Source: Clostridia bacterium
Lineage (GTDB): Bacteria; Bacillota; Clostridia; Christensenellales; QALW01
Direction of reading: 5' to 3'
Length of the DNA: 64,000 bases
Assembly: GCA_045591115.1 (NCBI GenBank)
Contig: JAZNSH010000014.1
Coordinates: forward strand, 14,769-78,768
Position numbers and translations under genes: made by a program
The notes under the pieces: model-generated
Told to the model about the DNA's origin: nothing
The model's input: only the letters and a program-made list of their open reading frames with translations
Databases searched by the model: none
In this document: positions 1 through 16,197 of the stretch, one piece after another
Numbering within the stretch: position 1 is the first letter of the stretch
How the letters are laid out: each line of letters opens with the position of its first letter

Positions 1-1374
1 TGATTTAACCATAGATGCACGTCTACGAACTTCTTCATGGGGAACAAGCTCACTTCTCTTAACAAAATCATCCCATTCAAGGCAACCATCCATATTAAAG
101 CCTACGGAAATAACGTTTCTCAAGAAAGGCAATGCTTTTGAATAAAGTGGTTTACCCGGTTCTGTATTCTTAAGCTCAGGACAAAGCTCTTCAATGATTG
201 CCTTATAATTTGAATCCTTACAATCCTCTATCATCACAAGAGTATGTGTATCTGACTGCCTTAAAAGATACTCTGCCTCGTGAATTTTATAGGCAGTATT
301 TACAGTTACCAAAACTGCACCAATCTTAACCGTTGCCCAGAAAGTCAAAAACCACTGAGGAACGTTCGTTGCCCATATTGCAACGTGATGACCCGGCTTT
401 ACACCCATTGAAATAAGAGCTGCCGCAACATTATCAACGTCATCACGGAACTCGGAATACGTCCTTGTATAATCAAGAGTCGTGTATTTAAAAGCATACT
501 GATCTGGGTATCTTTCGACCATAGTATCAAGAACCTCGGAAAAGGTTATATCAAGAACATCATATTTTTTCCAAGGAAAGGTTCCTGTTTTTGCGCGGTT
601 ATAATAAATTTCCTGCTGTTTTTTTGCCTCGCTGTTTTCCATAAAGCTGACAAAATGAGTTAATACAATATCGGGATCAAGAATTTCATCATTCCACAAA
701 GCACAAACGTAGCCATCATAATTAAGGCTTTTGAGCGCATTTACAAAATCCTTTACAGGAAGCTCGCCCTCGCCCATAAGGACATTTTTATCGCCCTTTT
801 TATCGCCTATACGAACGTATTGTATATACGCGCCTAAGGTTTGTATAGTCGTATCTGCCGCCTCGTTTGCGTTAAAATATGTTTCACGGATATTCCAGGA
901 AACACCGATAACTGCATTACTGAAAATGTTTATAACCTCAAGCACCTTTTTTGTGTCAGAAAGAACGCCATCTGTTTCAACAAGAATTGAAACGTTATAT
1001 TTTTCAGCAACTTCAATAGCAGGCGCAAAAATATCTTTTATTTTGTCTTCTTCAAAGATATTTTCAAAAGACACGCATACTGCAGGTATGCCCGCCATTG
1101 AAGCCATTTCAACGGTTTTTTTAAGCATCTGAGCATCAGTATTTTCATTAACCTTTTCAGAAATCGAAATTACACTTACACCGATATGTCGATTTACAAG
1201 CTTACGCTTTGAAGCGTTTACAGTTGCAGAGTGAAATAAACTGTCCTCGAAATGTTTTTTATCGAAAAAAGCATCAAAAATCTCAAAGCCGTGAAAACAG
1301 TATTGGCTTGTTATATTACAATATTCCAAAAACGAATTTGCCGTTACGTTTTTAGTTGAAAAAGCAAGTTTCAT
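1..1374 (-). CDS. Partial CDS running off the left edge. It fuses an N-terminal xylose-isomerase-like TIM barrel (sugar phosphate isomerase/epimerase family) to an AMP-dependent synthetase/ligase domain.
   Basis: ATG at 1374, one nt after the stop of the upstream gene. My translation reads MKLAFSTKNVTANSFLEY...GEGELPVKDFVNALKSLNYDGYV (TIM-barrel style), then YPDQYAFKYTTLDYTRTYSEF...GVKPGHHVAIWATNVPQW...VNTAYK (acyl-CoA synthetase N-terminal motifs). Open to position 1; absent from the ORF track because it is incomplete. Confidence 0.6.
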   Translation of the reverse strand, partial: MKLAFSTKNVTANSFLEYCNITSQYCFHGFEIFDAFFDKKHFEDSLFHSATVNASKRKLVNRHIGVSVISISEKVNENTDAQMLKKTVEMASMAGIPAVCVSFENIFEEDKIKDIFAPAIEVAEKYNVSILVETDGVLSDTKKVLEVINIFSNAVIGVSWNIRETYFNANEAADTTIQTLGAYIQYVRIGDKKGDKNVLMGEGELPVKDFVNALKSLNYDGYVCALWNDEILDPDIVLTHFVSFMENSEAKKQQEIYYNRAKTGTFPWKKYDVLDITFSEVLDTMVERYPDQYAFKYTTLDYTRTYSEFRDDVDNVAAALISMGVKPGHHVAIWATNVPQWFLTFWATVKIGAVLVTVNTAYKIHEAEYLLRQSDTHTLVMIEDCKDSNYKAIIEELCPELKNTEPGKPLYSKALPFLRNVISVGFNMDGCLEWDDFVKRSELVPHEEVRRRASMVKS

Positions 1375-1375
1375 A

Positions 1376-2740
1376 TTAATTTTCCTCGTAAACGATTTTA
1401 TTAAGCGCATTAACATATGCACGGATACAAGCACCTACAATATCTGTAGAAACACCGTTGCCCGAATAAAGCTTGCCGTCAGCACGAAGGCGGATAATTG
1501 ATGAACCAACTGCTTCTCTGCCTTTTGTCACGGATTCAACCTTGAAATCATCAAGCTCATAATGATGACCGATAATCTGTTCAATAGCGTGGAATGAAGC
1601 ATCAATAGGACCATCCCCCGTAGCAACACCGGAAAGCTTTTCTCCGTCTTTTTCAAGAATAATACTTGCAGTTGCAGTAATAACATTACCGTTGTTAACT
1701 ACATAGCTTACAAGATGATATGTTGAAGGAACCTGCATAGCACTCGTTGCAATAATTGCTTCAAGCTCTTTTGCACCAATCAAACCGCGTTTTTTTGAAA
1801 CACGCATAAACTCTTCATAAACCTTGCCGTTGTCTTCGCTTGAAAGCTCATAGCCGAGCTTCTGTGCAGCATTCTTAATATCATCTATCGTGGCATTTTC
1901 ATCAAGGCCGGATATAAGCTTTTCTTCTATATTGATTTCCTGAAGGTTTTCACTTTTCTTATTAATTTCGGCAACAGTTCTGTGAATTTTTGTGATATCA
2001 AGACCGGACATAATGCCAAAATCATTTCCTCTTGCTCTGATAATATCTGCAAGCACATCAGCCCTGAGCCATAATCCAACATTTGAGGTAACAATGCCTT
2101 CAGCTCCTGCTTTAATAGCTTCAACAGCACAAGCTGCCGCCATTTTAAGGGCATCAGATGGCTGAACCATTACGGAAATAATCTCTTTAAGTTCCGAAAC
2201 AATATCAAAAATTTCGTTAGGAAAAGCAATGCCTGCATCATCAACAATGGTAATTGCCTTTGCTCCCGCTTTCTGCGATGCTAACGCGCATTCTTTTAAA
2301 AAACCATTCTCTGCACGGGTAGCGTCCTTTAATGTAATATAAACTTCATCTGTATATTTCTTTGCTTCCGCAATAATCAATGAAATTTTATCAAGCATTT
2401 TATTTGCTTTAAGATGATACTGATATTCCATCTGCACCGTCGAAACAGGTACAACAACTTGAATTGCTACGCTTTTACCGTCCTTAACAGAGTTATATGC
2501 ACTTTCAACACCATTAACATCGTTAACAGAAACAGTAACCTTTGCATTTTCAACGCTTGTTGCGATAGTACGATATACGATAGCGTTTTCTTTTTCATTT
2601 AGTAACGCAGGTAGAATAATATTATCAAAGCCCGCGCCATCAATTGATGCGGCAATATTAAGCCTCTCTCTGAATGTGAGTGTTGCCTTTTCTTCAGCAA
2701 CAGCAAAAAGTGTGTTGTCAAAAACTGCAATTTTCTTCAT
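1376..2740 (-). CDS. 2-isopropylmalate/citramalate synthase (LeuA) family paralog. The catalytic motifs are degenerate but the C-terminal LeuA-dimer regulatory domain is retained.
   Basis: 454 aa. N-terminus FDNTLFAVAEE sits where LeuA has DTTLRDGEQ. SVMVQPSDALKMAAA sits where LeuA has HxHNDxGxAxAN. The C-terminus GDGPIDASFHAIEQI...GREAVGSSIIRLRADGKLYSGNGVSTDIVGACIRAYVNALN is a typical LeuA allosteric domain. Confidence 0.6.
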   Translation of the reverse strand: MKKIAVFDNTLFAVAEEKATLTFRERLNIAASIDGAGFDNIILPALLNEKENAIVYRTIATSVENAKVTVSVNDVNGVESAYNSVKDGKSVAIQVVVPVSTVQMEYQYHLKANKMLDKISLIIAEAKKYTDEVYITLKDATRAENGFLKECALASQKAGAKAITIVDDAGIAFPNEIFDIVSELKEIISVMVQPSDALKMAAACAVEAIKAGAEGIVTSNVGLWLRADVLADIIRARGNDFGIMSGLDITKIHRTVAEINKKSENLQEINIEEKLISGLDENATIDDIKNAAQKLGYELSSEDNGKVYEEFMRVSKKRGLIGAKELEAIIATSAMQVPSTYHLVSYVVNNGNVITATASIILEKDGEKLSGVATGDGPIDASFHAIEQIIGHHYELDDFKVESVTKGREAVGSSIIRLRADGKLYSGNGVSTDIVGACIRAYVNALNKIVYEEN

Positions 2741-2754
2741 AAAACTGCCTCCTT

Positions 2755-3005
2755 AAAAAAATAAACCCGCAAAGATACATTATATCTTCGCGGGATGATC
2801 AACAAATTTTTTGACCACGGTACCACCCGTATTGCTCAAATTTTGAGCCACTCAATAAGGTTCAAACAAACCCTTGTTCTGTTACGGGAACTCCCGAAGC
2901 CTCTTACTGAAATTCCGAGGCCCTGCTCCGATACGAGACAACGAATATACCGCCTATCGTTTTACACCAACCAACGACTCTCTAAAAGCGCAAAATACAT
3001 ACGTT
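2755..3005 (-). promoter_or_regulatory. T-box riboswitch leader (tRNA-sensing antiterminator) upstream of the LeuA-like gene
   Basis: The minus strand carries AGAGAG (2978-2983), GGTGTAAAA, and the T-box sequence AATACGGGTGGTACCGTGG (2815-2828 region). A terminator hairpin CCCGCGAAGATATAATGTATCTTTGCGGG (2766-2794) plus T-run follows, then the RBS AAGGAGG and the ATG at 2740. Tentative specifier CUC (Leu) at 2937-2935. Confidence 0.75.
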
Positions 3006-3161
3006 TAATATCCTCATAGCATTTGCCATTTAATTTTTTTATAATAATATAACAAAATGCCCCATCTGTCAAACGATTTTTATAATATTTTTCTAAAAAT
3101 TTCTCATTTTTTCTATGAATATGAGATAAAAAGTTGTATAATACAAAAAGGAGATGATTTT

Positions 3162-4028
3162 GTGATTAAAAAAACAAAAATAAAAAAAAGGCATATAGTT
3201 TTATGTGTTTTTGCCATTTTACTTATCGTAGTTATAATATGGATCACTTGGGGAAATAAGGCTCTTGAGTTAAATAATTTTTCTGTATTTTATGAAAATC
3301 TGCCTGAAAATTTTGACGGTTTCCGCATTGCCCACGTTTCAGACCTGCACAACACAAAATTCGGCAAAAATAACGAAAAACTTATTTCTATGCTAAAAAA
3401 TGCAAAACCCGATATTATTGCCATTACAGGTGATATCATTGATTCCTACAACACCGATATTTCCGTTGCAGTAGATTTTGCAAAAGAAGCAGTAAAAATT
3501 GCACCTTGCTATTACGTTACGGGTAATCATGAATCGCGAATAGATGAATTTGATGCTTTAAAAAAAAGTTTGACCGATTCAGGCGTTATATTTCTTGATG
3601 ATGAGAAGGCGGTAATTGAAAGATCAGGTGAATATATTACAATTATTGGCGTAAATGATCCAAGTTTTCAAACCGACTATCTGATGGGCGATTCAAAAAC
3701 TGTTATGGAAAACACACTAAAAAATTTTGAAACCGATTCCTTTACACTTTTATTATCACATCGACCTGAACTTTTTGACGTTTACGTTGAAAATGGTATT
3801 GATCTTGTTTTATCGGGACACGCTCACGGCGGACAGTTCAGATTGCCGTTTTTCGGTGGCGTGTTTGCCCCAAATCAAGGCGCCTTTCCTGAATACGACA
3901 GCGGTATTTATACAAAAAACGAAACTAACATGTGCGTCAGCCGAGGTATTGGAAACAGTATAATTCCTTTCCGTATAAATAACCGTCCCGAAATAATTCT
4001 AATAGAACTAAAAACTCCGCAGAATTAG
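3162..4028 (+). CDS. Membrane-anchored metallophosphoesterase (calcineurin-like, YkuE-type)
   Basis: Probable GTG start at 3162 behind AAAGGAG (3147-3153); the track ORF from 3057 is likely over-extended. One N-terminal TM helix. Motifs HVSDLH, GDIID, GNHE and GHAHGG. Confidence 0.7.
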   Translation: MIKKTKIKKRHIVLCVFAILLIVVIIWITWGNKALELNNFSVFYENLPENFDGFRIAHVSDLHNTKFGKNNEKLISMLKNAKPDIIAITGDIIDSYNTDISVAVDFAKEAVKIAPCYYVTGNHESRIDEFDALKKSLTDSGVIFLDDEKAVIERSGEYITIIGVNDPSFQTDYLMGDSKTVMENTLKNFETDSFTLLLSHRPELFDVYVENGIDLVLSGHAHGGQFRLPFFGGVFAPNQGAFPEYDSGIYTKNETNMCVSRGIGNSIIPFRINNRPEIILIELKTPQN

Positions 4029-4048
4029 TTTTCTGCGGAGAATTTTTT
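4015..4048 (+). terminator. Rho-independent terminator, probably bidirectional
   Basis: CTCCGCAGAA-ttagtt-TTCTGCGGAG followed by a T-run. It lies between convergent genes. Confidence 0.7.
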
Positions 4049-4611
4049 ATAAAGTTTTTGCAGTTTCTAAAATAATATTGACAACTTGCTTTGCGCAAGC
4101 ATCAATCCCTTTTTCCGTTAAATGTATCTTATCGCTTTCAAGAATGTACTCTTCAATATTGGGATAAACAAGAGAATGTAAGTCGTTTATAATAACTCCC
4201 ATATCCTTTAATATAGGAACTATTGCATCGTTATATTCCTTAATAAGTTCATTATCTGTATCAGGATTATCGAAACGGACGGGAGTTATAGTTGCGAAAA
4301 TAACCTTGTCAGCCTTTTTTAAAAGAACCTTTGCAATACGCGTCATATTCTCAACATATTCGTTTATGGGGGGTTAATGGTCCGTCACCCCAGTTGTTTC
4401 CAACATCCCAAAGACCGTTGTTCCAATGAATAATCCGTGAGCCTTCCATATCACTTTGCCAAGCTCTTATTGCTTGCAGAGTATATTTAGAAAATCTGCA
4501 GTTTTCTACAGGTTGATAAACTTCAAATTCTTCACCTAAAAGTGCGGGAACTTTTGTACCGTAACCGATCTGTCTGATTGAATCACCTAACAAAGTAATT
4601 TTCATCTTCAA
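4047..4611 (-). pseudogene. SGNH/GDSL hydrolase split into two ORFs by a frameshift in a C6 (plus-strand G6) homopolymer
   Basis: ORF 4351-4611 carries GDS (block I) and NNGLWD (block III). ORF 4047-4346 carries DKIHLT (block V). Removing one C from the run at about 4368-4373 reads ...PLTPINEYVENMTRIAKVL... across the gap. Confidence 0.65.
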
Positions 4612-5402: not shown

Positions 5403-6205
5403 AAGTTAATCTCTTTAAAACCGTTTAAAGTAAGAATGCTTCTTTTTTTGAAACCTATTTTTTTAGCCAAAGTTTCGGCATCAGAAAAATAGCAATTCAA
5501 AAAGTCTTTATTGTGGCAATCGCTGGTAAAAATAATTTTGCCGTTTTTATTTTTTATCATCTGTAAAATATTTTCAGATGGATATGGTGTTGTTCTGTAA
5601 CCGCGGGCAATGGCACCGGTATTTATTTCAAAAGGAATATCATATTTAACAAGCTTATTTACGGCATCTTCTGCAAAATACAGATATTTATCGCTTTCTT
5701 TAATATTTTTGCGCTCAAAGTTTTTTGAAATAAGGTCAAAATGCCCGATTATCTGACAGTTTGTTTTATCAACAACCGTTTTTACGTTTTCAAAATATTC
5801 TTCGGCAAACTTAAGAAACTCACCTTTATAAATTTCATTTACAACAAAATCAAACTCTTCCATAGACCCGTCAACGTTATAGAATTTATTATCTTTAATA
5901 ACGTAATGGGTTGAGCCGATAGCATAGTCAAAATAACCGATATCATCATCGGAAATAATATCCTGCTCAATTCCGCAAAGAATTTCGATCTTATCTTTAT
6001 ATTTTTCTTTTAGCGCGGTAATTTCCGAAAAATATTTTTTTGTGTTTTCAGGTGACATACAGTACGAACTTTCCTTCCTTGTATGCCCGTGTCCCGAAAA
6101 TCCCAAATAATCAAAATTAAGTTCAATAGCTTTTAAAACCATTTCTTCGGGAGAATTTTTACCGTCGCAAAAATGAGTGTGTGTATGATAATTTTCTTTT
6201 ATCAT
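5399..6205 (-). CDS. hisJ: Histidinol-phosphatase, PHP (HisJ/HisK) family
   Basis: 268 aa. YHTHTHFCDG N-terminus and GFSGHGH. Located at the end of the his operon and overlaps hisIE by 4 nt. Confidence 0.7.
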   Translation of the reverse strand: MIKENYHTHTHFCDGKNSPEEMVLKAIELNFDYLGFSGHGHTRKESSYCMSPENTKKYFSEITALKEKYKDKIEILCGIEQDIISDDDIGYFDYAIGSTHYVIKDNKFYNVDGSMEEFDFVVNEIYKGEFLKFAEEYFENVKTVVDKTNCQIIGHFDLISKNFERKNIKESDKYLYFAEDAVNKLVKYDIPFEINTGAIARGYRTTPYPSENILQMIKNKNGKIIFTSDCHNKDFLNCYFSDAETLAKKIGFKKRSILTLNGFKEINL

Positions 6206-6849
6206 TGCATTTTTTCCTGTTTAACCTTATGGTCAATTATGTGACGTGAGCCAAGTTCTTTCTGAATATCTTTAACGGAAATGCCCATATCTACCATCAA
6301 AACCATTACGTGGTATGCAAGGTCGGCAATTTCGTAAATGGTTTCCGCCTTATCGTCAGCCTTACCTCCAATAATAACTTCGGTGCTTTCTTCGCCAACT
6401 TTTTTCAATATTTTATCTCTGCCCTTTGAGAAAAGATACGTTGTATAAGAACCTTCGGGCATATCTTTTTTTCTGCCTTCAAGGAGTTTATATAAACCTT
6501 CCATTGAAAATTCTTCTTTATCTTCAGCATGATAAACTTCGTTAAAGAAGCAGGAATCTTCGCCCGTATGACAAGCAGGGCCTTCCTTTTCAACAACAAC
6601 CGTTAAAGCATCATTATCGCAATCGGCAGTAATGGAAACAATGTTTTGAAAATTTCCGCTTGTTTCGCCTTTGCGCCAAAGTTCTTGACGTGAACGTGAG
6701 AAAAAGCAAGTTCTTCCCTCTTTCATAGAAATTTCAAGGCTTTCCTTATTCATATAAGCAACAGTAAGCACTTTTTTAGAAAAAGCGTCAACAACAACTG
6801 CAGGAATAAGCCCCTTTTCATCAAATTTAAGTTCATTTATATCAACCAT
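6202..6849 (-). CDS. hisIE: Bifunctional phosphoribosyl-AMP cyclohydrolase / phosphoribosyl-ATP pyrophosphatase
   Basis: 215 aa. GLIPAVVVD...FFSRSRQELWRKGETSG...DCDNDAL (HisI) followed by a HisE-like C-terminus. Confidence 0.9.
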   Translation of the reverse strand: MVDINELKFDEKGLIPAVVVDAFSKKVLTVAYMNKESLEISMKEGRTCFFSRSRQELWRKGETSGNFQNIVSITADCDNDALTVVVEKEGPACHTGEDSCFFNEVYHAEDKEEFSMEGLYKLLEGRKKDMPEGSYTTYLFSKGRDKILKKVGEESTEVIIGGKADDKAETIYEIADLAYHVMVLMVDMGISVKDIQKELGSRHIIDHKVKQEKMQ

Positions 6850-6851
6850 TT

Positions 6852-7610
6852 TTAAAGCCTCACTTCAATGTTATTTTTCTTTAAGTCTTTTTTAAGATCC
6901 AAAATATCAATTTCTCCGAAATGGAACACAGATGCCGCAAGACCTGCACTTATCTTGGGAACTTTTTTAAACAGATCAATAAAATCTTCCGTTTTACCTG
7001 CGCCGCCTGATGCAATTACGGGAACATTTACAAGATCACAAATTTTCTCAAGCATTTCAAGATCAAAGCCTTGTTTAACACCATCAGTATCAATGGAGTT
7101 TACTACCACTTCGCCTGCACCCATATCAACACCGCGCTTTACCCATTCTAAAGCATCAATATTTGTGTTATCTCTGCCACCGCGTGCAAAAACTTTAAAT
7201 TTGCCGTCAACACGCTTAATATCGGCAGATAAAACAACACATTGACTGCCGTAACGCTTTGCCGCATCTTCAATAATTTGAGGATTTCTTATTGCCCCTG
7301 AATTTACGCTTACTTTATCGGCACCGCAATTAAGAACTCTTTCAAAATCATCTATCGTGTTGATTCCGCCGCCTACCGTAAGGGGAATAAAAATATTTTT
7401 TGCGCACTCTTTTAAAATGTCGGTAAAAATCTTTCTACCGTCACTGGAAGCGGTAATATCGTAAAAAACAAGTTCATCCGCACCTGATGAAGAATAAAAT
7501 TTTCCAAGTTCAACTGGTGAGGAAACATCCCTTAACCCCTCAAAATTTACGCCTTTAACAACTCTGCCGTCACGAACGTCAAGACAGGGAATAATTCTTT
7601 TTGTCAGCAT
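6852..7610 (-). CDS. hisF: Imidazole glycerol phosphate synthase cyclase subunit
   Basis: 252 aa. KRIIPCLDV..GRVVKG, ADELVFYDI and GGGI motifs. Confidence 0.92.
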   Translation of the reverse strand: MLTKRIIPCLDVRDGRVVKGVNFEGLRDVSSPVELGKFYSSSGADELVFYDITASSDGRKIFTDILKECAKNIFIPLTVGGGINTIDDFERVLNCGADKVSVNSGAIRNPQIIEDAAKRYGSQCVVLSADIKRVDGKFKVFARGGRDNTNIDALEWVKRGVDMGAGEVVVNSIDTDGVKQGFDLEMLEKICDLVNVPVIASGGAGKTEDFIDLFKKVPKISAGLAASVFHFGEIDILDLKKDLKKNNIEVRL

Positions 7611-8320
7611 CCTGATACCTCCAACGCCTTTTTAAGGTCTATTGCGCCGGTATAATAAGCTTTGCCGATTATTGCGCCATAAAGATTCATTTCCTTTAAA
7701 GCGATAATATCATCAATGGAATTTACTCCGCCTGAAGCGACAATATCAATTTTAAACTTTTGGGAAAGGTCTTTATACATTTGCCGATTTGTGCCAAGCA
7801 TTGTGCCGTCCTTTGAAATATCTGTGCAGATAACTGTCTGAACGCCAAGATTTTCAAGCTTTTTGAAAAAATCATCGCAAGTTAAATCTGCAGTTTCCGT
7901 CCAACCTTTAATTGCAACGTTACCGTTTAAAATATCAGCACCAACCGCAACTCTTTCGCCGAATTTTTTAACGGCTTCTTCTAAAAACACGGGATCCTTT
8001 ACCGCCGCAGTACCTAAAATAACACGCATAACGCCTGCATCAAGATACTTTTCAACAGTTTCCATTGAGCGTACTCCCCCGCCGATTTCGGCTTTAAGTC
8101 CCGATTCCTTAACAATTCTCTTTACGGTTTCTATATTGGGAGTATCACCGTTTTTTGCTCCTTCAAGATCAACAATGTGAATATATTCACACCCTGCATC
8201 TTTAAATTTCTTTGAAACCTCCCAAGGTTCTTTGGAATAAACGGTCATTTCTTCATACTTGCCCTTATAAAGGCGAACTGCCTTACCTTCAAAAAGGTCG
8301 ATAGCAGGAAAAATCAACAT
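7604..8320 (-). CDS. hisA: ProFAR isomerase
   Basis: 238 aa. IFPAIDL..GKAVRL, and position between hisH and hisF. Confidence 0.9.
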   Translation of the reverse strand: MLIFPAIDLFEGKAVRLYKGKYEEMTVYSKEPWEVSKKFKDAGCEYIHIVDLEGAKNGDTPNIETVKRIVKESGLKAEIGGGVRSMETVEKYLDAGVMRVILGTAAVKDPVFLEEAVKKFGERVAVGADILNGNVAIKGWTETADLTCDDFFKKLENLGVQTVICTDISKDGTMLGTNRQMYKDLSQKFKIDIVASGGVNSIDDIIALKEMNLYGAIIGKAYYTGAIDLKKALEVSGC

Positions 8321-8330
8321 AAAATAAACC

Positions 8331-8942
8331 TCACTTAACTAAAGCAAAACTTTTTAAAATCTTAAGTCCCACGTCTCCGCTTTTTTCGGGATGGAACTGA
8401 CAGCCGAACACGTTATCTTTCTCTACTGCGGCAGTAAATTCAATGCCGTAATCAGACGTTGCAATAACGTTCTTTTTATCGCAATCGGCAAAATAAGAAT
8501 GAACAAAATATACGTAATCGCCATTATTAAGATCTTTAAATATAGGCGAGTCGTTATATAACTTCAATGAGTTCCAACCTATTTGAGGAATCCGCAAGTC
8601 TTTATCTATTCTGCCCGCAAAGGGAACTATTGAGCCTTTTATTAGTCCAAGCCCCTTGTGAACACCAAACTCATAACTTTCATCGAACAAAAGTTGCATA
8701 CCAAGACAGATTCCCATTACGGGCTTTCCTTTTTTTACTTCATTAAACAAAACTTCTTGCATACCGCTTTCATTTAACTTTTTTGCCGCATCGCCAAATG
8801 CGCCTACACCGGGAAGAATGATCCTATCACAGCCATCAATTATTTTTTCATCATTGGTAACTATAGCATCTTCGCCTATCGCCTTAAAAGACGATTTTAA
8901 GGAAAACAGATTTCCAACGCCGTAATCAATTATTGCTATCAT
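8331..8942 (-). CDS. hisH: Imidazole glycerol phosphate synthase glutamine amidotransferase subunit
   Basis: 203 aa. IAIIDYGVGNL, PGVGAF, GICLGMQ and FHPEKS. Confidence 0.92.
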   Translation of the reverse strand: MIAIIDYGVGNLFSLKSSFKAIGEDAIVTNDEKIIDGCDRIILPGVGAFGDAAKKLNESGMQEVLFNEVKKGKPVMGICLGMQLLFDESYEFGVHKGLGLIKGSIVPFAGRIDKDLRIPQIGWNSLKLYNDSPIFKDLNNGDYVYFVHSYFADCDKKNVIATSDYGIEFTAAVEKDNVFGCQFHPEKSGDVGLKILKSFALVK

Positions 8943-9529
8943 TATAAAACACCTTTAGTTGATGGAATTTCGTCCTTAAAATCTTCGTTAATTTTTACAG
9001 CCTGAGCCATTGTCCGTGCAAAAGACTTAAAAATACCTTCAATTATATGATGCGTATTTGTACCATCAAGTTTTTTAATATGTAACGTTAAATTTGCATG
9101 GCGAACAAATGCGTAGAAAAATTCTTCGCAAAGCTCAGTATCAAAATCGCCAACGCGTCTTTGAGGCATTTTAACGTCAAAATTGAGGTATGCTCTGCCT
9201 GAAATATCAACAGCAGTTAAAATAAGCGATTCATCCATAGGAAGAATTGTGCTGCCGTAACGATAAATGCCTTTCATATCACCTAATGCTTCGGAGAAAG
9301 CCTTACCTAAGCAAATTGCAATATCTTCAACTGTGTGGTGATAATCAACAAAAGTATCCCCTATACAAGTAACCTCAAGATCAAATCTTCCGTGCTTCGC
9401 AAAAAGAGTAAGCATATGATCAAGAAATCCACAACCTGTATCGATTTTGCTTTCACCCTTGCCGTCAATATTTAATTTTAAGGTTATATCTGTTTCCTTT
9501 GTTTTTCGTTTAATAAATGAAGTTCTCAT
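8942..9529 (-). CDS. hisB: Imidazoleglycerol-phosphate dehydratase
   Basis: 195 aa. RKTKETDI..., GFLDHML and HHxxE motifs. Confidence 0.92.
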   Translation of the reverse strand: MRTSFIKRKTKETDITLKLNIDGKGESKIDTGCGFLDHMLTLFAKHGRFDLEVTCIGDTFVDYHHTVEDIAICLGKAFSEALGDMKGIYRYGSTILPMDESLILTAVDISGRAYLNFDVKMPQRRVGDFDTELCEEFFYAFVRHANLTLHIKKLDGTNTHHIIEGIFKSFARTMAQAVKINEDFKDEIPSTKGVL

Positions 9530-10584
9530 TTTTCCTCCAAAATCTCGGAAACTGCTTTAACTAAAGCATACATTTCCTCTAATGTACCGATAGTGATTCG
9601 GTTGAAATCTTTTATTCTTTCACTTGTAAAATGGCGAACTAAAATTCCGCGGTCTTTAAGTTTGAGATATAAATCTTCACCTGAAATTTTATCGCTTTTT
9701 ACAAAAATAAAGTTAGCATCTGATTTTAAAATGGTAAATCCCAAAAGTTCAAGCTCTTTAACTGTGCAATCGCGGTTTTTCATAATTGTTCGGCAATTAT
9801 TTTCATAATACTCGTTATCCATAAGAGAGGCTATACCTGCGATCTGGGTAAGGCGATTTACGTTGTATGGATTGGTTGAATATTTTATTTTTTCAAGATC
9901 ATTTATAATTTCTTTTGAAGCAAAAGCATAACCAAGCCTTGCCCCCGCCATTGATCTTGACTTTGAATAGGTGCGAACAACAAGAAGATTTTTGTACTTC
10001 TCAATTAAAGGAAGCACCGTTTTTCCGCCGAAATCAACATATGCTTCATCAATTAAAACAACGTTTTGGGGATTATTTTTTATAATTTCTTCAATTTTTT
10101 CTGTTTCCAAAGAAATCCCCGTAGGTGCATTGGGGTTTGCAATAACAATAAATTTATTTTTATTTAAAAACTTTTCGTAAGGAACGGAAAAATCTTCATT
10201 TAAAGGAATAATATCTGCTTCAATATTGTAAAGATCGGCAAAAACCTTATAAAAACCGTATGTGATATCATTAAAAACTGCACCGTTTTCGCCGTAAGCC
10301 ATAAATGCAAAATTAAGTATTTCGTCAGACCCGTTTGAAACAAAAACGTTTTCTTTCTTTACACCATATGTTTTTGCAAGTTCTTCTTTTAAAACCTTGC
10401 TTTCGGGATCCGAATATAGTTTTAGATTTTTTACCGCTTCTGCATTAACACACTCAACGACAATATCCGATGGCGGAAAAGGCGATTCGTTGGTATTTAA
10501 CTTAATATATTTTTTATCCTGCGGTTGTTCCCCGGGAGTGTATTCCTTTAAGGAATCATACTTTTTCGAAATAAAATTACTCAT
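9526..10584 (-). CDS. hisC: Histidinol-phosphate aminotransferase
   Basis: 352 aa class-II aminotransferase. LNTNESP and YSKSRSMAGARLGY (PLP lysine). Confidence 0.9.
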   Translation of the reverse strand: MSNFISKKYDSLKEYTPGEQPQDKKYIKLNTNESPFPPSDIVVECVNAEAVKNLKLYSDPESKVLKEELAKTYGVKKENVFVSNGSDEILNFAFMAYGENGAVFNDITYGFYKVFADLYNIEADIIPLNEDFSVPYEKFLNKNKFIVIANPNAPTGISLETEKIEEIIKNNPQNVVLIDEAYVDFGGKTVLPLIEKYKNLLVVRTYSKSRSMAGARLGYAFASKEIINDLEKIKYSTNPYNVNRLTQIAGIASLMDNEYYENNCRTIMKNRDCTVKELELLGFTILKSDANFIFVKSDKISGEDLYLKLKDRGILVRHFTSERIKDFNRITIGTLEEMYALVKAVSEILEEK

Positions 10585-11855
10585 TTTCTTGTCCTAATAA
10601 TCGCGCTGTTTGCGTGGGCGCCTAAGCCTTCCTTGTTTGCAAAATAGAAAACATCCTCAGCAACCTTTTCAAGTGCTGACTTGGTATAATAAGAATATTG
10701 CATTGTTTTAACAAAGTCCTCAACAGAAAGCGGACTTGAAAATCTTGCAGTTCCGCTGGTGGGAAGCGTATGATTAGGTCCTGCAAAATAATCTCCAAGC
10801 GCCTCAGGACAATATCTTCCCATAAACACACTCCCTGCGTGCTTAACACTATCAAGAAGACTGAATGGATCATCTACACAAAGCTCAAGATGCTCAGGTG
10901 CTATCTCATTTGCAATATCTATTGCATATTTGATATCAGGCGCAACGATTATCTTTCCATTATTATCGATAGATGCTCTTGCAATTTCCTGTCGCTCAAG
11001 CTTTGAAAGCTGAATCTCGATTTCTTTCTGAACTTCCTTTGCAAGCTCGTCGCTTTCCGTAACAAGAACTGCACTTGCATTTTTATCGTGTTCAGCCTGA
11101 GAAAGAAGATCTGCAGCAACGTAGGCCGCATTGCTTTTTCCATCCGCAACAACAAGGATCTCACTGGGACCTGCAATCATATCAATATCAACCATACCGT
11201 AGACCTGGCGCTTTGCTTCAGCAACAAAAGCGTTGCCCGGACCTACTATTTTATCAACCTTTGAAACAGTTTCAGTGCCATATGCAAGTGCCGCGACCGC
11301 CTGCGCTCCGCCAACCTTAAAAATTCTATCAACTCCCGCGATCTTGGCGGCCGCAAGAATAACGGGATTTACCTTTCCGTTTTTCATTGGCGGTGTTGTA
11401 ATCGCAATTTCACTGCATCCTGCGATCTTTGCAGGAATGGAATCCATTAAAACAGTTGAAGGATACGCTGCCGTACCACCAGGCACATAAAGACCAACCT
11501 TTTCAATGGGAAGAACCTTCTGACCTATCACAACGCCTTCTTTATTATTCAATATAAAGCTGTTTCGTTTTTGCAATGAGTGGAATTCTTTGATATTTTC
11601 AGCCGCATCCTTTAAAATGCGAATAAATTCAGGCTCAACAAGGTTAAATGCTTCATCTATTTCTTCTTCAGAAACTTCAATGCTATCAAGCTCTGCCCCA
11701 TCAAACTTTTGGGCATATTCCTTTAACGCTTTGTCACCGTTGTTTTTTACGTTTTCAATTATATCTTTTACAATATCAGAAACGTCACCCGTTGGATTGT
11801 TGCGGGCAAATATTTCATCATTGGAAACAGTTCCGTACTTAAAAATTTTAATCAT
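10581..11855 (-). CDS. hisD: Histidinol dehydrogenase
   Basis: The family is clear (GGAQA, IAGPSE, AEHD, HLE motifs). The preferred start is the ATG at 11855 (MIKIFKYG) behind GGAGAG, not the track start at 11870. Confidence 0.9.
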   Translation of the reverse strand: MIKIFKYGTVSNDEIFARNNPTGDVSDIVKDIIENVKNNGDKALKEYAQKFDGAELDSIEVSEEEIDEAFNLVEPEFIRILKDAAENIKEFHSLQKRNSFILNNKEGVVIGQKVLPIEKVGLYVPGGTAAYPSTVLMDSIPAKIAGCSEIAITTPPMKNGKVNPVILAAAKIAGVDRIFKVGGAQAVAALAYGTETVSKVDKIVGPGNAFVAEAKRQVYGMVDIDMIAGPSEILVVADGKSNAAYVAADLLSQAEHDKNASAVLVTESDELAKEVQKEIEIQLSKLERQEIARASIDNNGKIIVAPDIKYAIDIANEIAPEHLELCVDDPFSLLDSVKHAGSVFMGRYCPEALGDYFAGPNHTLPTSGTARFSSPLSVEDFVKTMQYSYYTKSALEKVAEDVFYFANKEGLGAHANSAIIRTRK

Positions 11856-12480
11856 TTTTGCTCTCCACAATTTGTTGTAATTTGTTCTTTATATCATTGA
11901 TCTTCTCTTGCTTAAAACCATATGATGACTTATTGGCAATAAGCCTTGCACTTATTTTAACAATATCTTCAATGGGCTCAAGTCCGTTTTCCAATAGCGT
12001 TTTTCCCGTTTCAACTATATCAACTATAACATCAGAAAGACCTAAGATAGGTGCAAGCTCAATGGAGCCGTTAAGATGGATAATATCAATATCTCTCGCC
12101 TTAAGCTGATAGTGCTTTGATGCAATATTGGAAAATTTAGTTGCAACGCGCAGAGTAGTTGCAGTATTATCTCTGAAGCCTTTAGGTGCGGCAACTGCCA
12201 TACGGCACTTACCCATATTAAGATCAAGAAGCTCATAAACATCAGGCTCGTATTCAAGTAAAATATCCTTGCCTGCAACGCCGATATCAGCGGCACCACG
12301 CTCAACATAAATCGAAACGTCCGATGGCTTCACCCAGAAGTATCTTATGCCTTTTTCGGGATTTTCAAAGGTAAGACGGCGATTGTTTTCTTTAATCGAT
12401 TCACATTCGTAGCCTGCTTTTTCAAAAAGATCGTAAACCTTTTCACCAAGCCTGCCTTTAGGAAGCGCAATATTCAGCAT
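11848..12480 (-). CDS. hisG: ATP phosphoribosyltransferase, short form
   Basis: 210 aa. LNIALPKGRL and DIVETGKTL. The short form is consistent with the adjacent hisZ. Confidence 0.9.
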   Translation of the reverse strand: MLNIALPKGRLGEKVYDLFEKAGYECESIKENNRRLTFENPEKGIRYFWVKPSDVSIYVERGAADIGVAGKDILLEYEPDVYELLDLNMGKCRMAVAAPKGFRDNTATTLRVATKFSNIASKHYQLKARDIDIIHLNGSIELAPILGLSDVIVDIVETGKTLLENGLEPIEDIVKISARLIANKSSYGFKQEKINDIKNKLQQIVESKND

Positions 12481-13559
12481 TATATCAGCTCCTTTCCGTA
12501 AACAAGGCGCTTATACTTAATTTTTTGCGGAACGCTCTTATAAACAAGAACGCTTTCACCGTTTTCAGAAAGCTTTTCAACTGCTTCCATTATTTTTTGC
12601 GGTTCATCAGTTTCGGGAATGAATAATATATCCACATCGTATTCTTGCGTTTTTGCATTTAAACGTTCAAAGCTGTCCATATACACGGCAAAGCCGATAG
12701 CACTGACATTTTTCTTTAATTTTTTCATTAAAGTGTCATACTGTCCACCTGAAAGAACGCCTGTGGGGATCCCCTCAATATAGCCCTTAAAAACAATGCC
12801 GCTATAATAACTCATATTATTTGCCAATGAAAAATTGATGCGCACCTTTTTATTTAAACCTAATGCTTTAAGAGTATCAAGAACTGCTTTAAATTCATTA
12901 AAAGCGGTCTGTGCTTTAGTTGTTGATACATTTAATTTGAACTGTGAAATATCGGAATAATCGCAAATAAGAGCATTGATAGCTTCAGCCTGATTTTCGG
13001 AAATCAATCCATCTTTTTGAAGCTTTAAAATTCCGCCCTGATTTTTAAGAGAAACAAACTCTCTTACAGTAGACAAAATTTCTTCAGGAATATTGTTTTC
13101 TTCAATTATCGCTTCAACAAATCCTGCGTGAGATATCTCAAGCTGATAGTTTTCATCGATCATTTCAAGACTTTTTACCGCAAGTGACGTAACTTCAGCA
13201 ATTTCATAAAGCCCGATATTCCCAACACATTCAAGGCCCGTTTGCATAATCTCCTTAAAGCGATGAGATTCACCTGAAACACGGTAAACATTTTCATTAT
13301 AATAGAGCTTTTGAATCTCCGAATTACCCAAGTGATTTATTATCGAAAGGGTTACGTCAGGTTTTAAAGCAAGAAGTTTTCCGTTTGTATCGGTAAAAGT
13401 GATCACCCTATCGGAAATAAGAAAATCTTTGTTTCTTACGTAAAGATCATATTCTTCAAACTTACTCATCTTATATTGAGTATAGCCATATTTTGAATAC
13501 AATGAACGAAGCTTGTAAACTGCAAGCTCTTCATTTTTCAAAAGAGCTTCATTAATCAT
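12480..13559 (-). CDS. hisZ: ATP phosphoribosyltransferase regulatory subunit (HisRS paralog)
   Basis: 359 aa, class-II aaRS-like. Its stop overlaps the hisG start (TAATG). Confidence 0.85.
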   Translation of the reverse strand: MINEALLKNEELAVYKLRSLYSKYGYTQYKMSKFEEYDLYVRNKDFLISDRVITFTDTNGKLLALKPDVTLSIINHLGNSEIQKLYYNENVYRVSGESHRFKEIMQTGLECVGNIGLYEIAEVTSLAVKSLEMIDENYQLEISHAGFVEAIIEENNIPEEILSTVREFVSLKNQGGILKLQKDGLISENQAEAINALICDYSDISQFKLNVSTTKAQTAFNEFKAVLDTLKALGLNKKVRINFSLANNMSYYSGIVFKGYIEGIPTGVLSGGQYDTLMKKLKKNVSAIGFAVYMDSFERLNAKTQEYDVDILFIPETDEPQKIMEAVEKLSENGESVLVYKSVPQKIKYKRLVYGKELI

Positions 13560-13846
13560 TTTTGATTCTCCAATCTGTCAATCACTGTTTTATAACCACC
13601 GTTTCCATATTTGATGCAACGATTAACACGACAAACAGTTGCTGTGCTTGCACCTGTTTCTGTGCTTATTTCAGTGTAAACTTTGCCCTCAATAAGCTTT
13701 TGTGCAACGTCAAAACGCTGAGCTATTGCTTCAAGCTCTTGAATTGTGCAAATATCATTAAAGAAGTTTTCACACTCTTCAACATTCTCAATAAGAAGAA
13801 TTGCCTTATAAAAATTTTCAAGTGCTTTTTTATCAAGTTTTTTCAT
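13556..13846 (-). CDS. yerC: YerC/YecD-family TrpR-like DNA-binding protein, the first gene of the his operon
   Basis: 96 aa. ...CTIQELEAIAQRFDVAQKL..G.Y.EISTETGASTATVCRVNRCIKYGNGGY. ATGA overlap with hisZ. Confidence 0.8.
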   Translation of the reverse strand: MKKLDKKALENFYKAILLIENVEECENFFNDICTIQELEAIAQRFDVAQKLIEGKVYTEISTETGASTATVCRVNRCIKYGNGGYKTVIDRLENQK

Positions 13847-13878
13847 TTAAAAACCGTCCATTTCATTTATTTTTTCAC

Positions 13879-13907
13879 ATTGTAGCACACTAAAGCGATA
13901 AAGTCAA
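13879..13907 (-). promoter_or_regulatory. Sigma-A type promoter of the yerC-his operon
   Basis: Minus strand reads TTGACT - 17 nt - (TGc)TACAAT, about 30 nt upstream of the yerC ATG. There is no room for an attenuator or T-box. Confidence 0.6.
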
Positions 13908-13924
13908 AGGCTTTTGCACTTTTT

Positions 13925-13963
13925 TTATAAAAAAATATAAAAACGCAGTAAAAAACTGCGTTT
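13925..13963 (-). terminator. Rho-independent terminator after metA
   Basis: AAACGCAG-loop-CTGCGTTT followed by a T-rich run on the minus strand. Confidence 0.6.
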
Positions 13964-13970
13964 AAATAAA

Positions 13971-14891
13971 TTATTCCTCATCTTTCGATATTTCGTAAGG
14001 TGTAACCTGATAAACATAATAGTTGAGCCAATTGGAATAAATTAAATTTGCGTGGCTTCTCCAGGAAACAAGGGGCTCGAGCGTATCATCATCATTTGGA
14101 AAGTAGTTTTTGGGAACCTTTATTTCAAGACCAAGATTTTTATCGCGCATATATTCTTTTTTAAGAGTATCGGGATCGTACTCGGAATGTCCGGTAATAA
14201 ATATTTGCTTACCTGAATCTGTGGCAAGAGCATAAATACCTGCTTCCTCACTTGTAGCCAAGATCCTTAATTCAGGCACCTTTTCAATATCTTCCCTTTT
14301 TACTTCCGTGTGGCGTGAATGAGGAACCATAAAAACATCGTCAGCACCGCGGAAAAGCATTGAGGAACGCCTTTCAACAATATGCGGAAATACACCAAAC
14401 ATCTTTTCTTTTAAAGGATATTTATTGATTCCGAAATGGTAATAAAGCCCTGCTTGCGCGCCCCAACAAATATGGAAGGTGCTTGTAACGTGAGTTTTTG
14501 TCCACTCCATTATTTCACAAAGCTCATCCCAATATTCAACCTCTTCAAAGGGCATTTTTTCAACGGGAGCACCGGTAATGATCATACCGTCATAATGGTT
14601 ATGCTTTATATCCTTAAATGTTTTATAGAATGCAAGCATATGCTCCTTTGAAACATTTTTTGATTCGTGAGTGCTTGTGTGAATAAGTTCGAGTTCCACC
14701 TGCAAGGGTGTGTTACCCAAAAGACGGGCAAGCTGAGTTTCCGTTTCAACTTTCGTGGGCATAAGATTTAAAAGCAAAATTTTTAAAGGTCTTATATCCT
14801 GAGAAAGAGCGCGGGTTTCCGTCATAACGAATATATTTTCACTCAAAAGCGTTTCCGTTGCAGGAAGCGCATTGGGTATTTTAATTGGCAT
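13971..14891 (-). CDS. metA: Homoserine O-acyltransferase (MetA family)
   Basis: 306 aa. MPIKIP..LPA...L..ENIF, ILNLMP and FHICWGAQA. Confidence 0.9.
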
Positions 14892-14901
14892 AAAATTCTC
14901 C

Positions 14902-16197
14902 TTATTTTAAAGTATTAAGCGCCTGATCAAGATCTTCAATAAGATCATCGGCATTTTCGATGCCAACCGAAAGACGAACAAGATCAGGTGAAACACCTGC
15001 GGCAACAAGTTCTTCATCGTTCATCTGACGGTGTGTTGCAGAAGCAGGATGCAAGCAACAAGTACGTGCATCGGCAACGTGAGTTTCGATTGAGCAAAGT
15101 TTTAACTCTTTCATAAAGGCTTCAGCAGCCTTTCTTCCGCCCTTAACACCGAAACTTACTACACCGCACTGACCTTTAGGAAGATACTTCATTGCAAGGT
15201 CATAATCCTTATCCCCTTCAAGACCTGAATATTTTACCCAAGAAATAAGGGGATGATTTTTTAAGAATTGTGCAATTTTAAGTGCGTTAGAAGAATGTCT
15301 TTCCATTCTAACGTGAAGGCTTTCAAGACCTAAGTTTAATAAAAATGCGTTCTGAGGTGACTGAATTGAACCAAAATCGCGCATAAGCTGTGCAGTTGCC
15401 TTTGTGATAAATGCGCCTTCCAAGCCAAAGCGTTCAGTATAAGTTACACCGTGATAACTGTCATCAGGAGTTGTAAGACCGGGGAATTTATCGGCATACT
15501 TATTCCAATCAAATTTACCGCTGTCAACGATACATCCGCCAACTGCGGCACCGTGACCGTCCATATACTTTGTTGTTGAGTGTGTTACGATGTCGGCACC
15601 GAACTCAAAGGGACGGCAAAGATAAGGTGTTGCAAAGGTATTGTCAATAATTAACGGAACACCGTGTGAATGTGCGGCTTTTGCAAAACGCTCAATATCA
15701 AGAACAACAAGAGCGGGGTTTGCAATGGTTTCACCGAAAACTGCCTTAGTGTTAGGCTTAAAGGCTGCTTCAAGCTCTTCATCTGTGCAATAAGGTGAAA
15801 CAAAAGTAAAATCAATGCCCATTTTCTTCATTGTAACAGAGAAAAGGTTAAAAGTTCCACCGTAAACAGTTGATGCGCAAACAACGTGATCGCCGCAGTT
15901 GGCAATATTAAATACTGCATAAAAATTTGCTGCCTGACCTGATGAAGTAAGCATTGCGGCAGTACCGCCTTCAAGTGCGGCTATTTTACCTGCAACATAA
16001 TCATTTGTGGGATTCTGCAATCTTGTATAAAAATATCCGCTGGCTTCAAGGTCAAAAAGCTTGCCCATATCCTCGCTTGTATCATACTTAAACGTAGTGC
16101 TCTGAACAATGGGAATCTGCCTTGGTTCACCGTTACCGGGAACATAACCCGCCTGGATACATTTAGTTTCAATTCTTGTTTCTTTCATGGTTTTCAC
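14902..16197 (-). CDS. metY: O-acetylhomoserine sulfhydrylase (PLP-dependent, Cys/Met metabolism family)
   Basis: 431 aa. [17 protein letters not shown] and [11 protein letters not shown] (PLP lysine). Confidence 0.88.

Follow-up and report, generated by a model that had tools for sequence, protein, structure and literature searches.

A LeuA paralogue lacking the catalytic residues is paired with an acyl-CoA ligase behind a leucine-specifier T-box leader

Overview

We identified a two-gene module in a Clostridia bacterium (GCA_045591115.1, contig JAZNSH010000014.1) in which a T-box leader with a leucine specifier precedes a paralogue of the leucine biosynthetic enzyme LeuA that has lost its catalytic residues, followed one nucleotide downstream by a fusion of a sugar-epimerase-like TIM barrel with an acyl-CoA ligase. 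The window analyzed is a 64-kb stretch of this contig, and all features described here are on its minus strand. In related uncultured gut and rumen Clostridia the gene pair sits in a cluster that most likely rebuilds leucine, isoleucine and valine from branched short-chain fatty acids. We found no description of the combination in the papers searched.

A first-pass annotation of the sequence had reported the T-box leader, the loss of LeuA catalytic residues, and the tight coupling to a TIM-barrel/adenylating fusion, and all three observations were confirmed. Its interpretation, an amino-acid-starvation-induced pathway in which the LeuA-derived protein is a sensor or scaffold for an adenylating enzyme, is supported only in part: the induced pathway fits everything found, whereas the sensor or scaffold role is still an inference, and the pathway itself could not be seen from that sequence alone.

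The T-box leader

The only Rfam hit in the window was RF00230 at 2788-3026, which scored 105.7 bits against a gathering score of 93 (E 2.6e-22) and covered the full model (positions 1-219 of 219), including Stem I with its K-turn and specifier loop, Stem II, IIA/B, Stem III, and the antiterminator. The leader is 93-94% identical in nucleotide sequence to those of two related loci, designated L003 and L004. Absence of a foldable specifier loop or antiterminator had been named in advance as grounds for rejecting the assignment, but both elements are present. The 3' side of the specifier loop, UUGUCUCG, was read as CUC (Leu, 2937-2935) plus the purine G2934, followed by a 4-bp helix and the K-turn strand, in agreement with the tentative first-pass reading of this codon. 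The same CUC was read at the equivalent place in 71 of 74 related genome loci and in 48 of 49 metagenome loci with a T-box motif, and CUC plus purine is conserved in related loci, although about a quarter of the metagenome loci have no detectable T-box.

The conserved T-box sequence GGGUGGUACCGUGG lies at 2828-2815 and forms the 5' strand of the antiterminator, with the bulge that pairs with the tRNA acceptor end. An intrinsic terminator (2756-2794) consists of a 13-bp hairpin at 2794-2766 plus a U-tract, and its 5' arm overlaps the 3' strand of the antiterminator, sharing the CCCG strand (minimum free energy -35.4 kcal/mol, z = -4.9). Read-through in response to uncharged tRNA was not assayed. 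A promoter-like site, TTGACA-17-TATTAT, lies just upstream of the leader at 3072-3044; it is the best site in 2600-3200 and matches 11 of 12 consensus positions, but is a consensus match only. A ribosome-binding site, AAGGAGG (2748-2754), is 7 nt before the ATG at 2740.

The LeuA-like protein

The first gene (1376-2740) encodes a 454-residue protein matching the Pfam families HMGL-like (E 2.9e-20) and LeuA_dimer (E 1.1e-29, positions 4-130 of 131), and thus has the domain organization of 2-isopropylmalate synthase (IPMS). It is far below every NCBIfam LeuA cut-off, the best score being 209.6 bits against 532 (NF002086), with 192.4 against 598.7 for TIGR00973. The AlphaFold2 model had a pLDDT of 83.7, and its best PDB neighbors were M. 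tuberculosis LeuA (3HPZ, leucine-bound 3FIG, and 1SR9) and truncated IPMS, with an rmsd of 1.7-2.0 Å to truncated IPMS barrels (1.7 Å to 3EWB).

Alignments to the solved IPMS structures 3EWB and 3RMJ and to E. coli LeuA were used to ask, as had been proposed beforehand, whether the catalytic Asp/His/His were merely offset. They were not: LRDGEQ is replaced by LFAVAEE and VHTHDD by VQPSDA, as the first-pass annotation had claimed. Relative to E. coli LeuA, and likewise to 3EWB and 3RMJ, the metal ligands are changed (D14 to V/A, H202 to Q, H204 to S). In addition, R13 is replaced by F, H106 by Q, the Glu of EDA (E141) by K and the Thr of DTVG (T171) by D, there is a 5-residue gap at GERAGN, and a deletion of about 30 residues removes AFAHSSGIHQDG, so that the linker following the barrel lacks the HxSGIHxDG subdomain.

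The degenerate DRE-TIM barrel (1955-2740, residues 1-262) had a mean column conservation of 0.59 in 80 orthologues. The LeuA-type regulatory domain (1379-1780, residues 321-454) is the best-conserved part of the protein, at 0.80. The GDGPIDA motif and the Gly aligned to E. coli G462 are invariant. The allele leuA(G462D) is used to remove leucine feedback (PMC6345581).

The coupled TIM-barrel ligase

The LeuA-like gene ends with TAA at 1378-1376 and the next gene begins with ATG at 1374-1372, giving a 1-nt spacer, with GAGGA at 1387-1383 inside the end of the LeuA-like gene. The spacer is 1-3 nt in most of the 80 related loci (median 1). The LeuA-like gene is directly followed by the TIM-ligase gene in all 80 genome loci for which downstream sequence was available and in 69 of 69 metagenome loci found from the TIM domain of the ligase, so that the pairing is obligate in both directions.

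The downstream reading frame runs off the window, which contains 458 of its residues. The N-terminal barrel (625-1374, residues 1-250) matches AP_endonuc_2 (E 8.7e-12, 45.7 bits against a cut-off of 31.1) and resembles xylose isomerases and ketose 3-epimerases. Its AlphaFold2 model had a pLDDT of 94 and a pTM of 0.90, and Foldseek matched UlaE and ketose 3-epimerases with TM scores of 0.75-0.82, UlaE being the best hit (TM 0.80). Of the canonical Glu-Asp-His-Glu metal site at the ends of strands 4-7, only the first Glu (E133) is retained in alignments to MJ1311 and within the family; the Asp position is an invariant Asn161, the His position is mostly Arg188, and the last Glu position is variable. 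Identity is low, and one register error cannot be excluded. Divergence of this barrel and that of the LeuA-like protein co-varies (r = 0.88), more than either does with the other domain of its own protein, although the correlation could come from both being fast-evolving or from one recombination tract.

The acyl-CoA ligase domain of the ANL family begins at residue 270 or so (1-565) and matches AMP-binding (E 8e-25) and NCBIfam PRK12583 (E 1e-43). Only its first 190 or so residues lie in the window, which leaves undecided whether this copy has the complete set of core motifs; motifs A3, A5, A7, A8 and A10 are all intact in 66 full-length orthologues of 812-824 residues, and conservation of the ligase is 0.89. 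The nearest solved relatives of the TIM-ligase are feruloyl-, fatty-acyl- and malonyl-CoA synthetases, which say nothing about isovalerate.

The cluster in related loci

In the closest relatives the pair heads a cluster containing an Ile T-box before one HTH-cupin-ligase gene and a Val T-box before a second, followed by genes for the transaminase IlvE, a P-loop NTPase, and a VorB-type 2-oxoacid:ferredoxin oxidoreductase (VOR). The specifiers were read as AUC in 27 of 27 cases and as GUA or GUC in 22 of 24, and each T-box has its own strong promoter match. IlvE (PRK13357, 469.8 bits against 307) and VorB (NF005507, 555.8 against 399) are above their equivalog or subfamily cut-offs, and the beta, gamma and delta subunits are also present. 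The two additional ligases score best to MbcS and to MacsMa (3ETC, E 2e-187). MbcS activates 2-methylbutyrate and isobutyrate but activates isovalerate poorly (PMC10026030), and MacsMa prefers 2-methylbutyrate (PMC10455477).

The downstream cluster is not inside our window, and its presence in this genome is inferred from synteny. The window's flanks are 92-99% identical in protein sequence to those of L003 and L004, which carry the cluster as far as their sequence extends (L003 through the start of VorB; L004 ends inside the first HTH-cupin ligase). In some Christensenellaceae loci (L009 and L058) the same pair, with IlvE and VOR but no other ligase nearby, is preceded by a Leu T-box followed by an Ile T-box, and the ligase may therefore not be leucine-specific. 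Some loci have a second T-box without Stem I, and in others (L154-L162) no VOR gene lies within 6 kb of the pair.

Proposed function

The best reading of these data, to which we assign a probability of about one half, is starvation-induced synthesis of branched-chain amino acids by reductive carboxylation of branched fatty acids. A branched short-chain fatty acid, ATP and CoA would give the acyl-CoA, ferredoxin-dependent reductive carboxylation would give the 2-oxo acid, and transamination would give the amino acid. The pair in the window would be the leucine branch, at the start of a transcription unit switched on when tRNA-Leu is uncharged, with an active AMP-forming ligase that activates isovalerate. 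The LeuA paralogue, no longer able to perform Claisen condensation, would bind leucine through its regulatory domain and tune (most simply, feedback-inhibit) the ligase, probably through contact between the two degenerate barrels. It would then play the same role in this salvage route that the regulatory domain of LeuA plays in the standard route.

The cluster-level reading is well supported. Our analysis demonstrates the leader, the residue losses, the pairing, the composition of the cluster and its three specifiers, whereas the direction of flux, isovalerate as the substrate, leucine binding and a physical complex are inferred. Neither an experiment nor a complex prediction links the LeuA-like protein physically to the ligase, leucine binding and flux from isovalerate to leucine were not measured, and whether these genomes lack leuABCD and ilv genes was not examined. 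In the three-T-box arrangement IlvE and VOR lie behind the Val T-box, so that leucine starvation alone would not obviously induce them. Support for the sensor or scaffold role comes from the obligate pairing, the conservation of the regulatory domain and its ligand loop, and the co-varying barrels, and is only indirect.

A more far-reaching possibility, which is compatible with the evidence but which we consider less likely than not, is that each ligase of the cluster carries its own end-product sensor. For leucine this would be a two-part module of the dead LeuA, whose regulatory domain binds leucine, and the dead epimerase-like barrel fused to the ligase, in which the former metal ligands have become conserved Asn and Arg that may bind a carboxylate. 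For isoleucine and valine it would be the HTH-cupin module fused to the ligase, which might also bind DNA as BirA does. This would be a previously unrecognized class of allosterically gated ANL ligases, and a first case of a LeuA-derived pseudoenzyme acting as a regulatory subunit, layered on top of amino-acid-specific T-box control.

Alternative explanations

The cluster could also work as proposed with the LeuA-like protein as a structural partner only, which stabilizes or dimerizes the ligase or docks it onto the oxidoreductase so that isovaleryl-CoA is handed over, without sensing leucine. The obligate pairing, tight coupling and co-varying barrels would be consistent with this, and DRE-TIM aldolases form channelling complexes with partner enzymes; the aldolase-dehydrogenase complexes 1NVM and 4JN6 are among the structural neighbors of the LeuA-like protein. 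We consider this unlikely, given that the strongest constraint is on the regulatory domain, with an invariant GDGPIDA and G462-equivalent Gly, which is hard to explain for a pure scaffold, and that the pair occurs in the loci without a nearby VOR gene.

It is more doubtful that the two barrels are not dead but together form a new active site, performing a different reaction on a leucine-pathway intermediate before or after adenylation. Both barrels keep several invariant polar residues: D8, R24, E105, H109, K111, D139, R142, D167 and the P194-S195 pair that replaces HxH in the LeuA-like protein, and E31, E133, N161, R163, E171 and D191 in the ligase barrel, where the former metal ligands are replaced by conserved Asn and Arg rather than by random residues. 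However, the LeuA-like protein has lost both metal His, the Asp, the Arg, the catalytic Glu, GERAGN and the whole HxSGIHxDG subdomain, and its former LRDGEQ loop is variable within the family. Most of the remaining invariant residues are also conserved in real LeuA and so may be structural, and the barrels are the fastest-evolving parts.

A catabolic direction, from amino acid to 2-oxo acid to acyl-CoA to fatty acid, is very unlikely even though IlvE and VOR are reversible and VOR-type enzymes serve amino acid fermentation in other anaerobes, because T-boxes switch genes on when the cognate tRNA is uncharged and the amino acid is scarce, AMP-forming ligases consume two ATP equivalents to activate acids and are not used in energy-conserving catabolism, and each ligase carries the specifier of the amino acid that its expected substrate would yield.

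Significance and comparison with known systems

Rumen and gut anaerobes grow better with, or require, isobutyrate, 2-methylbutyrate and isovalerate, and carboxylate these acids to valine, isoleucine and leucine, as has been recognized since the 1960s. The genes are still poorly defined, and isoacid feed supplements are used empirically. This cluster provides a concrete and widely distributed gene set in uncultured Christensenellaceae, Oscillospiraceae and Acutalibacteraceae, in which the three T-box specifiers act as built-in labels predicting which ligase serves which amino acid. The pair would also add a clear example of a pseudoenzyme kept for its ligand-sensing domain. These genes are at risk of annotation as 2-isopropylmalate synthase, as two JGI records already are, which would falsely credit the genomes with the first step of the standard leucine pathway.

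Reductive carboxylation of 2-methylbutyrate has been described as the probable route to isoleucine in a rumen methanogen, M. ruminantium (PMC2812497). The enzymes expected for such a route, acyl-CoA ligase, VOR-type oxidoreductase and IlvE, are clustered in the related loci described here, which come from rumen and hindgut organisms. The physiology is known, but in the papers searched we found no gene-level description with T-box control for each amino acid and a dead-LeuA partner.

The LeuA-like protein shares the two-domain fold of LeuA and the GxGPxDA loop of its regulatory domain, but scores less than half of every NCBIfam LeuA cut-off and is always paired with a ligase rather than with leuBCD. 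The proposed logic is that of HisZ-HisG, in which a catalytically dead histidyl-tRNA synthetase paralogue is the regulatory subunit of ATP phosphoribosyltransferase. In each case a dead paralogue of an enzyme that recognizes the end-product amino acid would be reused as the allosteric subunit of the first committed, ATP-consuming enzyme of a pathway to that amino acid, although the complex and ligand binding have not been shown for the present pair, and the fold, the partner enzyme and the pathway all differ.

The leader has all of the structural elements of T-box leaders with a Leu specifier, including terminator/antiterminator competition, but the genes controlled are not a tRNA synthetase, a standard biosynthetic operon or a transporter, and in relatives three T-boxes with Leu, Ile and Val specifiers stand in series in one cluster. 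The substrates of MbcS (S. aureus) and MacsMa (M. acetivorans), 2-methylbutyrate and isobutyrate, match the Ile and Val specifiers of the two downstream ligases in related loci. These ligases differ in carrying an N-terminal HTH_19 plus Cupin_2 module and in falling below the MbcS equivalog cut-off (444-447 bits against 850), whereas the ligase in the window belongs to a different, PRK12583-like branch and carries a TIM barrel instead.

The T-box leader and its transcription unit

A covariance model search of the 64-kb window against Rfam gave one match, a T-box leader at 2788-3026 on the minus strand, which scores 105.7 bits against a gathering score of 93 (E 2.6e-22) and covers the full model; no other riboswitch or leader reached an Rfam gathering score anywhere in the window. 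The first-pass annotation had proposed covariance modelling to test its tentative reading of a CUC specifier, and had conceded that a leader without a foldable specifier loop and antiterminator would count against it. In the model alignment the 3' side of the specifier loop reads UUGUCUCG, placing CUC (2937-2935, Leu) directly before a purine, a 4-bp helix and the K-turn strand. A 13-bp hairpin with a U-tract lies at 2794-2756 and shares its CCCG strand with the antiterminator, and the region folds far better than shuffled sequences (z = -4.9). A promoter match, TTGACA-17-TATTAT (11/12), lies at 3072-3044.

AAGGAGG precedes the ATG at 2740. The ORF at 1376-2740(-) encodes 454 aa with HMGL-like and LeuA_dimer domains. 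The next ORF starts one base after the stop (TAA 1378-1376, ATG 1374), with GAGGA at 1387-1383, and runs off the window; its 458 residues carry an AP_endonuc_2 TIM barrel and the beginning of an AMP-binding domain. The three observations of the first-pass annotation, a T-box leader, a LeuA paralogue without catalytic residues and its coupling to a TIM-barrel/ligase fusion, are therefore confirmed. Its interpretation, a starvation-induced pathway with the LeuA derivative as sensor or scaffold, is only partly supported: a starvation-induced pathway fits everything found, but the role of that protein is an inference.

The surrounding region is biosynthetic. At 6202-16197(-) a complete his operon ends in a PHP-type histidinol phosphatase and an Amidohydro_2 gene, followed by metA and a Cys/Met PLP enzyme. 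At 4047-4611(-), a GDSL-like hydrolase gene that is a single 185-aa ORF in L001 (7641-8198), one of the related loci described below, is split into two ORFs of 86 and 99 aa in different frames, as a result of either a frameshift or an assembly error.

The LeuA paralogue

The LeuA paralogue cannot be an isopropylmalate synthase. It scores less than half of every NCBIfam LeuA cut-off. It had been stipulated in advance that the claim of lost catalytic residues would fall if a proper alignment recovered the Asp/His/His at an offset. Alignments to solved IPMS barrels and to E. coli LeuA instead show LRDGEQ replaced by LFAVAEE, with R13 and D14 lost, and VHTHDD replaced by VQPSDA, with both metal His lost. 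In addition, H106 is replaced by Q, E141 by K and T171 by D, there is a 5-residue gap at GERAGN, and the AFAHSSGIHQDG subdomain is removed by a deletion of ~30 residues. The former LRDGEQ loop is variable among family members, which fits a loss of constraint at that site.

The fold is nevertheless kept in the predicted structure. The AF2 model has a mean pLDDT of 83.7, and its best PDB neighbours are M. tuberculosis LeuA, including the leucine-bound entry 3FIG, across both domains, while truncated IPMS barrels superpose at 1.7-2.0 A. The regulatory domain is the best-conserved part of the protein, with a mean column conservation of 0.80 against 0.59 for the barrel in 80 orthologues. A phmmer search of PDB with this domain alone found nothing, so it was compared by the fold search and by alignment to E. 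coli LeuA, with which it shares the GxGPxDA loop and the glycine at E. coli position 462, which is G412 in the window's protein. The leuA(G462D) allele is used to abolish leucine feedback (PMC6345581). The possibility that the gene is a decaying pseudogene is rejected, since it is an intact ORF in all 80 genome loci, with a strongly conserved C-terminal domain.

The partner ligase

In 66 full-length orthologues of the downstream protein (812-824 aa), the adenylation domain is very conserved (0.89), with intact YTSGTTGFPKG, YGQTE, GWLHTGD, GRLKDMIIRGGENIYP and PMNAAGKILK motifs. We take this to indicate an active ANL ligase, although the window itself carries only the beginning of the domain. 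PDB relatives of the adenylation domain give no clue to the substrate. The N-terminal barrel is modelled with pLDDT 94 and resembles ketose 3-epimerases such as UlaE (TM about 0.8). Of the canonical Glu-Asp-His-Glu metal site only the first Glu is kept; the Asp position is an invariant Asn, the His position is mostly Arg, and the last Glu position is variable.

Pairing of the two genes

An exact-sequence search with the LeuA-like protein of the window found no contig, so the DNA left of the window was not examined, and related loci were used instead. Starting from the LeuA-like protein, every one of the 80 genome loci that extends downstream of it has the TIM-ligase directly downstream, with a median spacer of 1 nt. 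These loci are one found by exact-protein look-up and GTDB species representatives, all uncultured Clostridia from human, ruminant and other animal guts. Starting from the ligase's TIM domain, 69 of 69 metagenome loci with enough upstream DNA carry the LeuA-like gene directly upstream. The pair is thus obligate. Its most divergent branch, in human gut metagenomes (loci L154-L162; TIM barrel 31% and LeuA-like 42% identical), still has the Leu T-box (L154 4306-4546, 117 bits), but none of the other genes of the cluster described below lies within 6 kb downstream.

Pairwise divergence of the two barrels correlates at r = 0.88, more than either barrel correlates with the other domain of its own protein. 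Relative to the related loci L003 and L004, whose T-box leader and his-operon flanks are 92-99% identical to those of the window, both window barrels (625-1374(-) and 1955-2740(-)) are only 73-75% identical, while the regulatory and adenylation domains are 92-96% identical. The barrels are closer (82-87%) to those of L002, whose flanks are more distant. This co-variation is weak evidence, as a single recombination tract spanning both, or simply two fast-evolving segments, could produce it.

Genomic setting

A survey of the gene neighbourhoods of homologues, which had been suggested beforehand as a check, gives the pathway. In the closest relatives (L001-L005) the Leu T-box, LeuA-like gene and TIM-ligase are followed by a T-box and an HTH_19-Cupin_2-ligase, by another T-box and a second HTH_19-Cupin_2-ligase, and then by IlvE, a CbiA/NUBPL-like P-loop NTPase, a ferredoxin-like delta subunit, VorB, and the beta and gamma subunits. 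This downstream cluster lies outside the window. IlvE and VorB pass their curated cut-offs (469.8 against 307, and 555.8 against 399). The NTPase (L008 14914-15585 and equivalents between IlvE and the VOR delta subunit) is conserved inside the cluster and matches no NCBIfam family; it may be an iron-sulfur cluster carrier for the oxidoreductase. In Christensenellaceae-type loci, such as L008, the pair is followed directly by IlvE, the NTPase and VOR. A tblastn search with E. coli LeuA and LeuB, which covered the window and the ±10 kb neighbourhoods but not whole genomes, found no genuine leuA or leuB there.

The additional T-boxes were found with Rfam, and the three best promoter matches in 10 kb of L001 each sit just before one T-box. 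The specifier before the LeuA-like gene reads CUC (Leu) in 71 of 74 loci, that before the first HTH-cupin ligase reads AUC (Ile) in 27 of 27, and that before the second reads GUA or GUC (Val) in 22 of 24. Automated reading of the specifier missed loci with unusual K-turn strands (L040 and L061), which were read by eye as CUC.

The two HTH-cupin ligases (L001 14165-16432 and 16773-19073, with equivalents in about 30 loci) have the architecture of a small-molecule-binding transcription factor fused to an adenylating enzyme, reminiscent of BirA. They score best to MbcS and to MacsMa 3ETC (E 2e-187). MbcS activates 2-methylbutyrate and isobutyrate and handles isovalerate poorly (PMC10026030), and MacsMa prefers 2-methylbutyrate (PMC10455477). 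The enzyme affinities and the riboswitch labels therefore agree for Ile and Val, which leaves isovalerate and Leu for the distinct TIM-ligase.

Not all leaders fit this scheme neatly. In L009 (4475-4691 and 4793-5002) and L058 (about 9400-9990), a Leu (CUC) T-box is followed by a promoter and an Ile (AUC) T-box, both preceding the LeuA-like/TIM-ligase/IlvE/VOR genes, so that the ligase may accept more than one acid there. Many Christensenellaceae-type loci (L008, and also L014, L015, L019, L021, L026, L027, L030, L031 and L033) carry tandem leaders upstream of the LeuA-like gene. In these a full Leu (CUC) T-box with its own terminator (L008 9466-9675) is followed by a strong promoter match and a second T-box (L008 9791-9949, 50 bits) that keeps Stem IIA/B, Stem III and the antiterminator but has no recognisable Stem I or specifier; it is not obvious how such a leader would select a tRNA. 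Sixteen of 65 metagenome loci (L096, L117, L123, L127, L131, L133, L151 and 9 others) have no T-box motif upstream of the pair, and the 11 of these that were scanned have no Rfam T-box at gathering score, so another form of control must operate in these lineages. In the three-T-box arrangement, IlvE and VOR lie behind the Val T-box.

Proposed mechanism

We propose that when tRNA-Leu is uncharged the leader reads through and the pair is made. The ligase would convert isovalerate to isovaleryl-CoA, the VOR-type enzyme would carboxylate this reductively to 2-ketoisocaproate, and IlvE would make leucine, with the same logic applying to the Ile and Val branches. The dead LeuA would supply leucine feedback to the first, ATP-consuming step. 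The leader, the residue losses, the pairing, the cluster composition and the specifiers are shown, whereas the direction of flux, the substrate, leucine binding and the complex, for which no structure prediction was run, are inferred. The pathway at the level of the cluster is well supported, isovalerate as the substrate is somewhat more likely than not, and the role of the LeuA-like protein as a leucine-sensing subunit is tentative; for the combined statement we estimate a probability of about 0.5. A catabolic direction is rejected on T-box logic and on the use of AMP-forming ligases.

Comparison with known systems

Literature searches for a description of this operon, the triple T-box arrangement or a LeuA-derived pseudoenzyme found none, although they returned papers on the related enzymes and physiology, including MbcS, MacsMa and M. 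ruminantium. The pathway itself is known physiology, being the classical rumen route. It is cited as the probable source of Ile in M. ruminantium (PMC2812497). The leader is an ordinary member of RF00230. The LeuA-like protein has the LeuA fold but fails the defining catalytic features, and should not be filed as LeuA, as some sources already do in naming homologues 2-isopropylmalate synthase. Its proposed role as a source of leucine feedback to the ligase would be analogous to that of HisZ with HisG.
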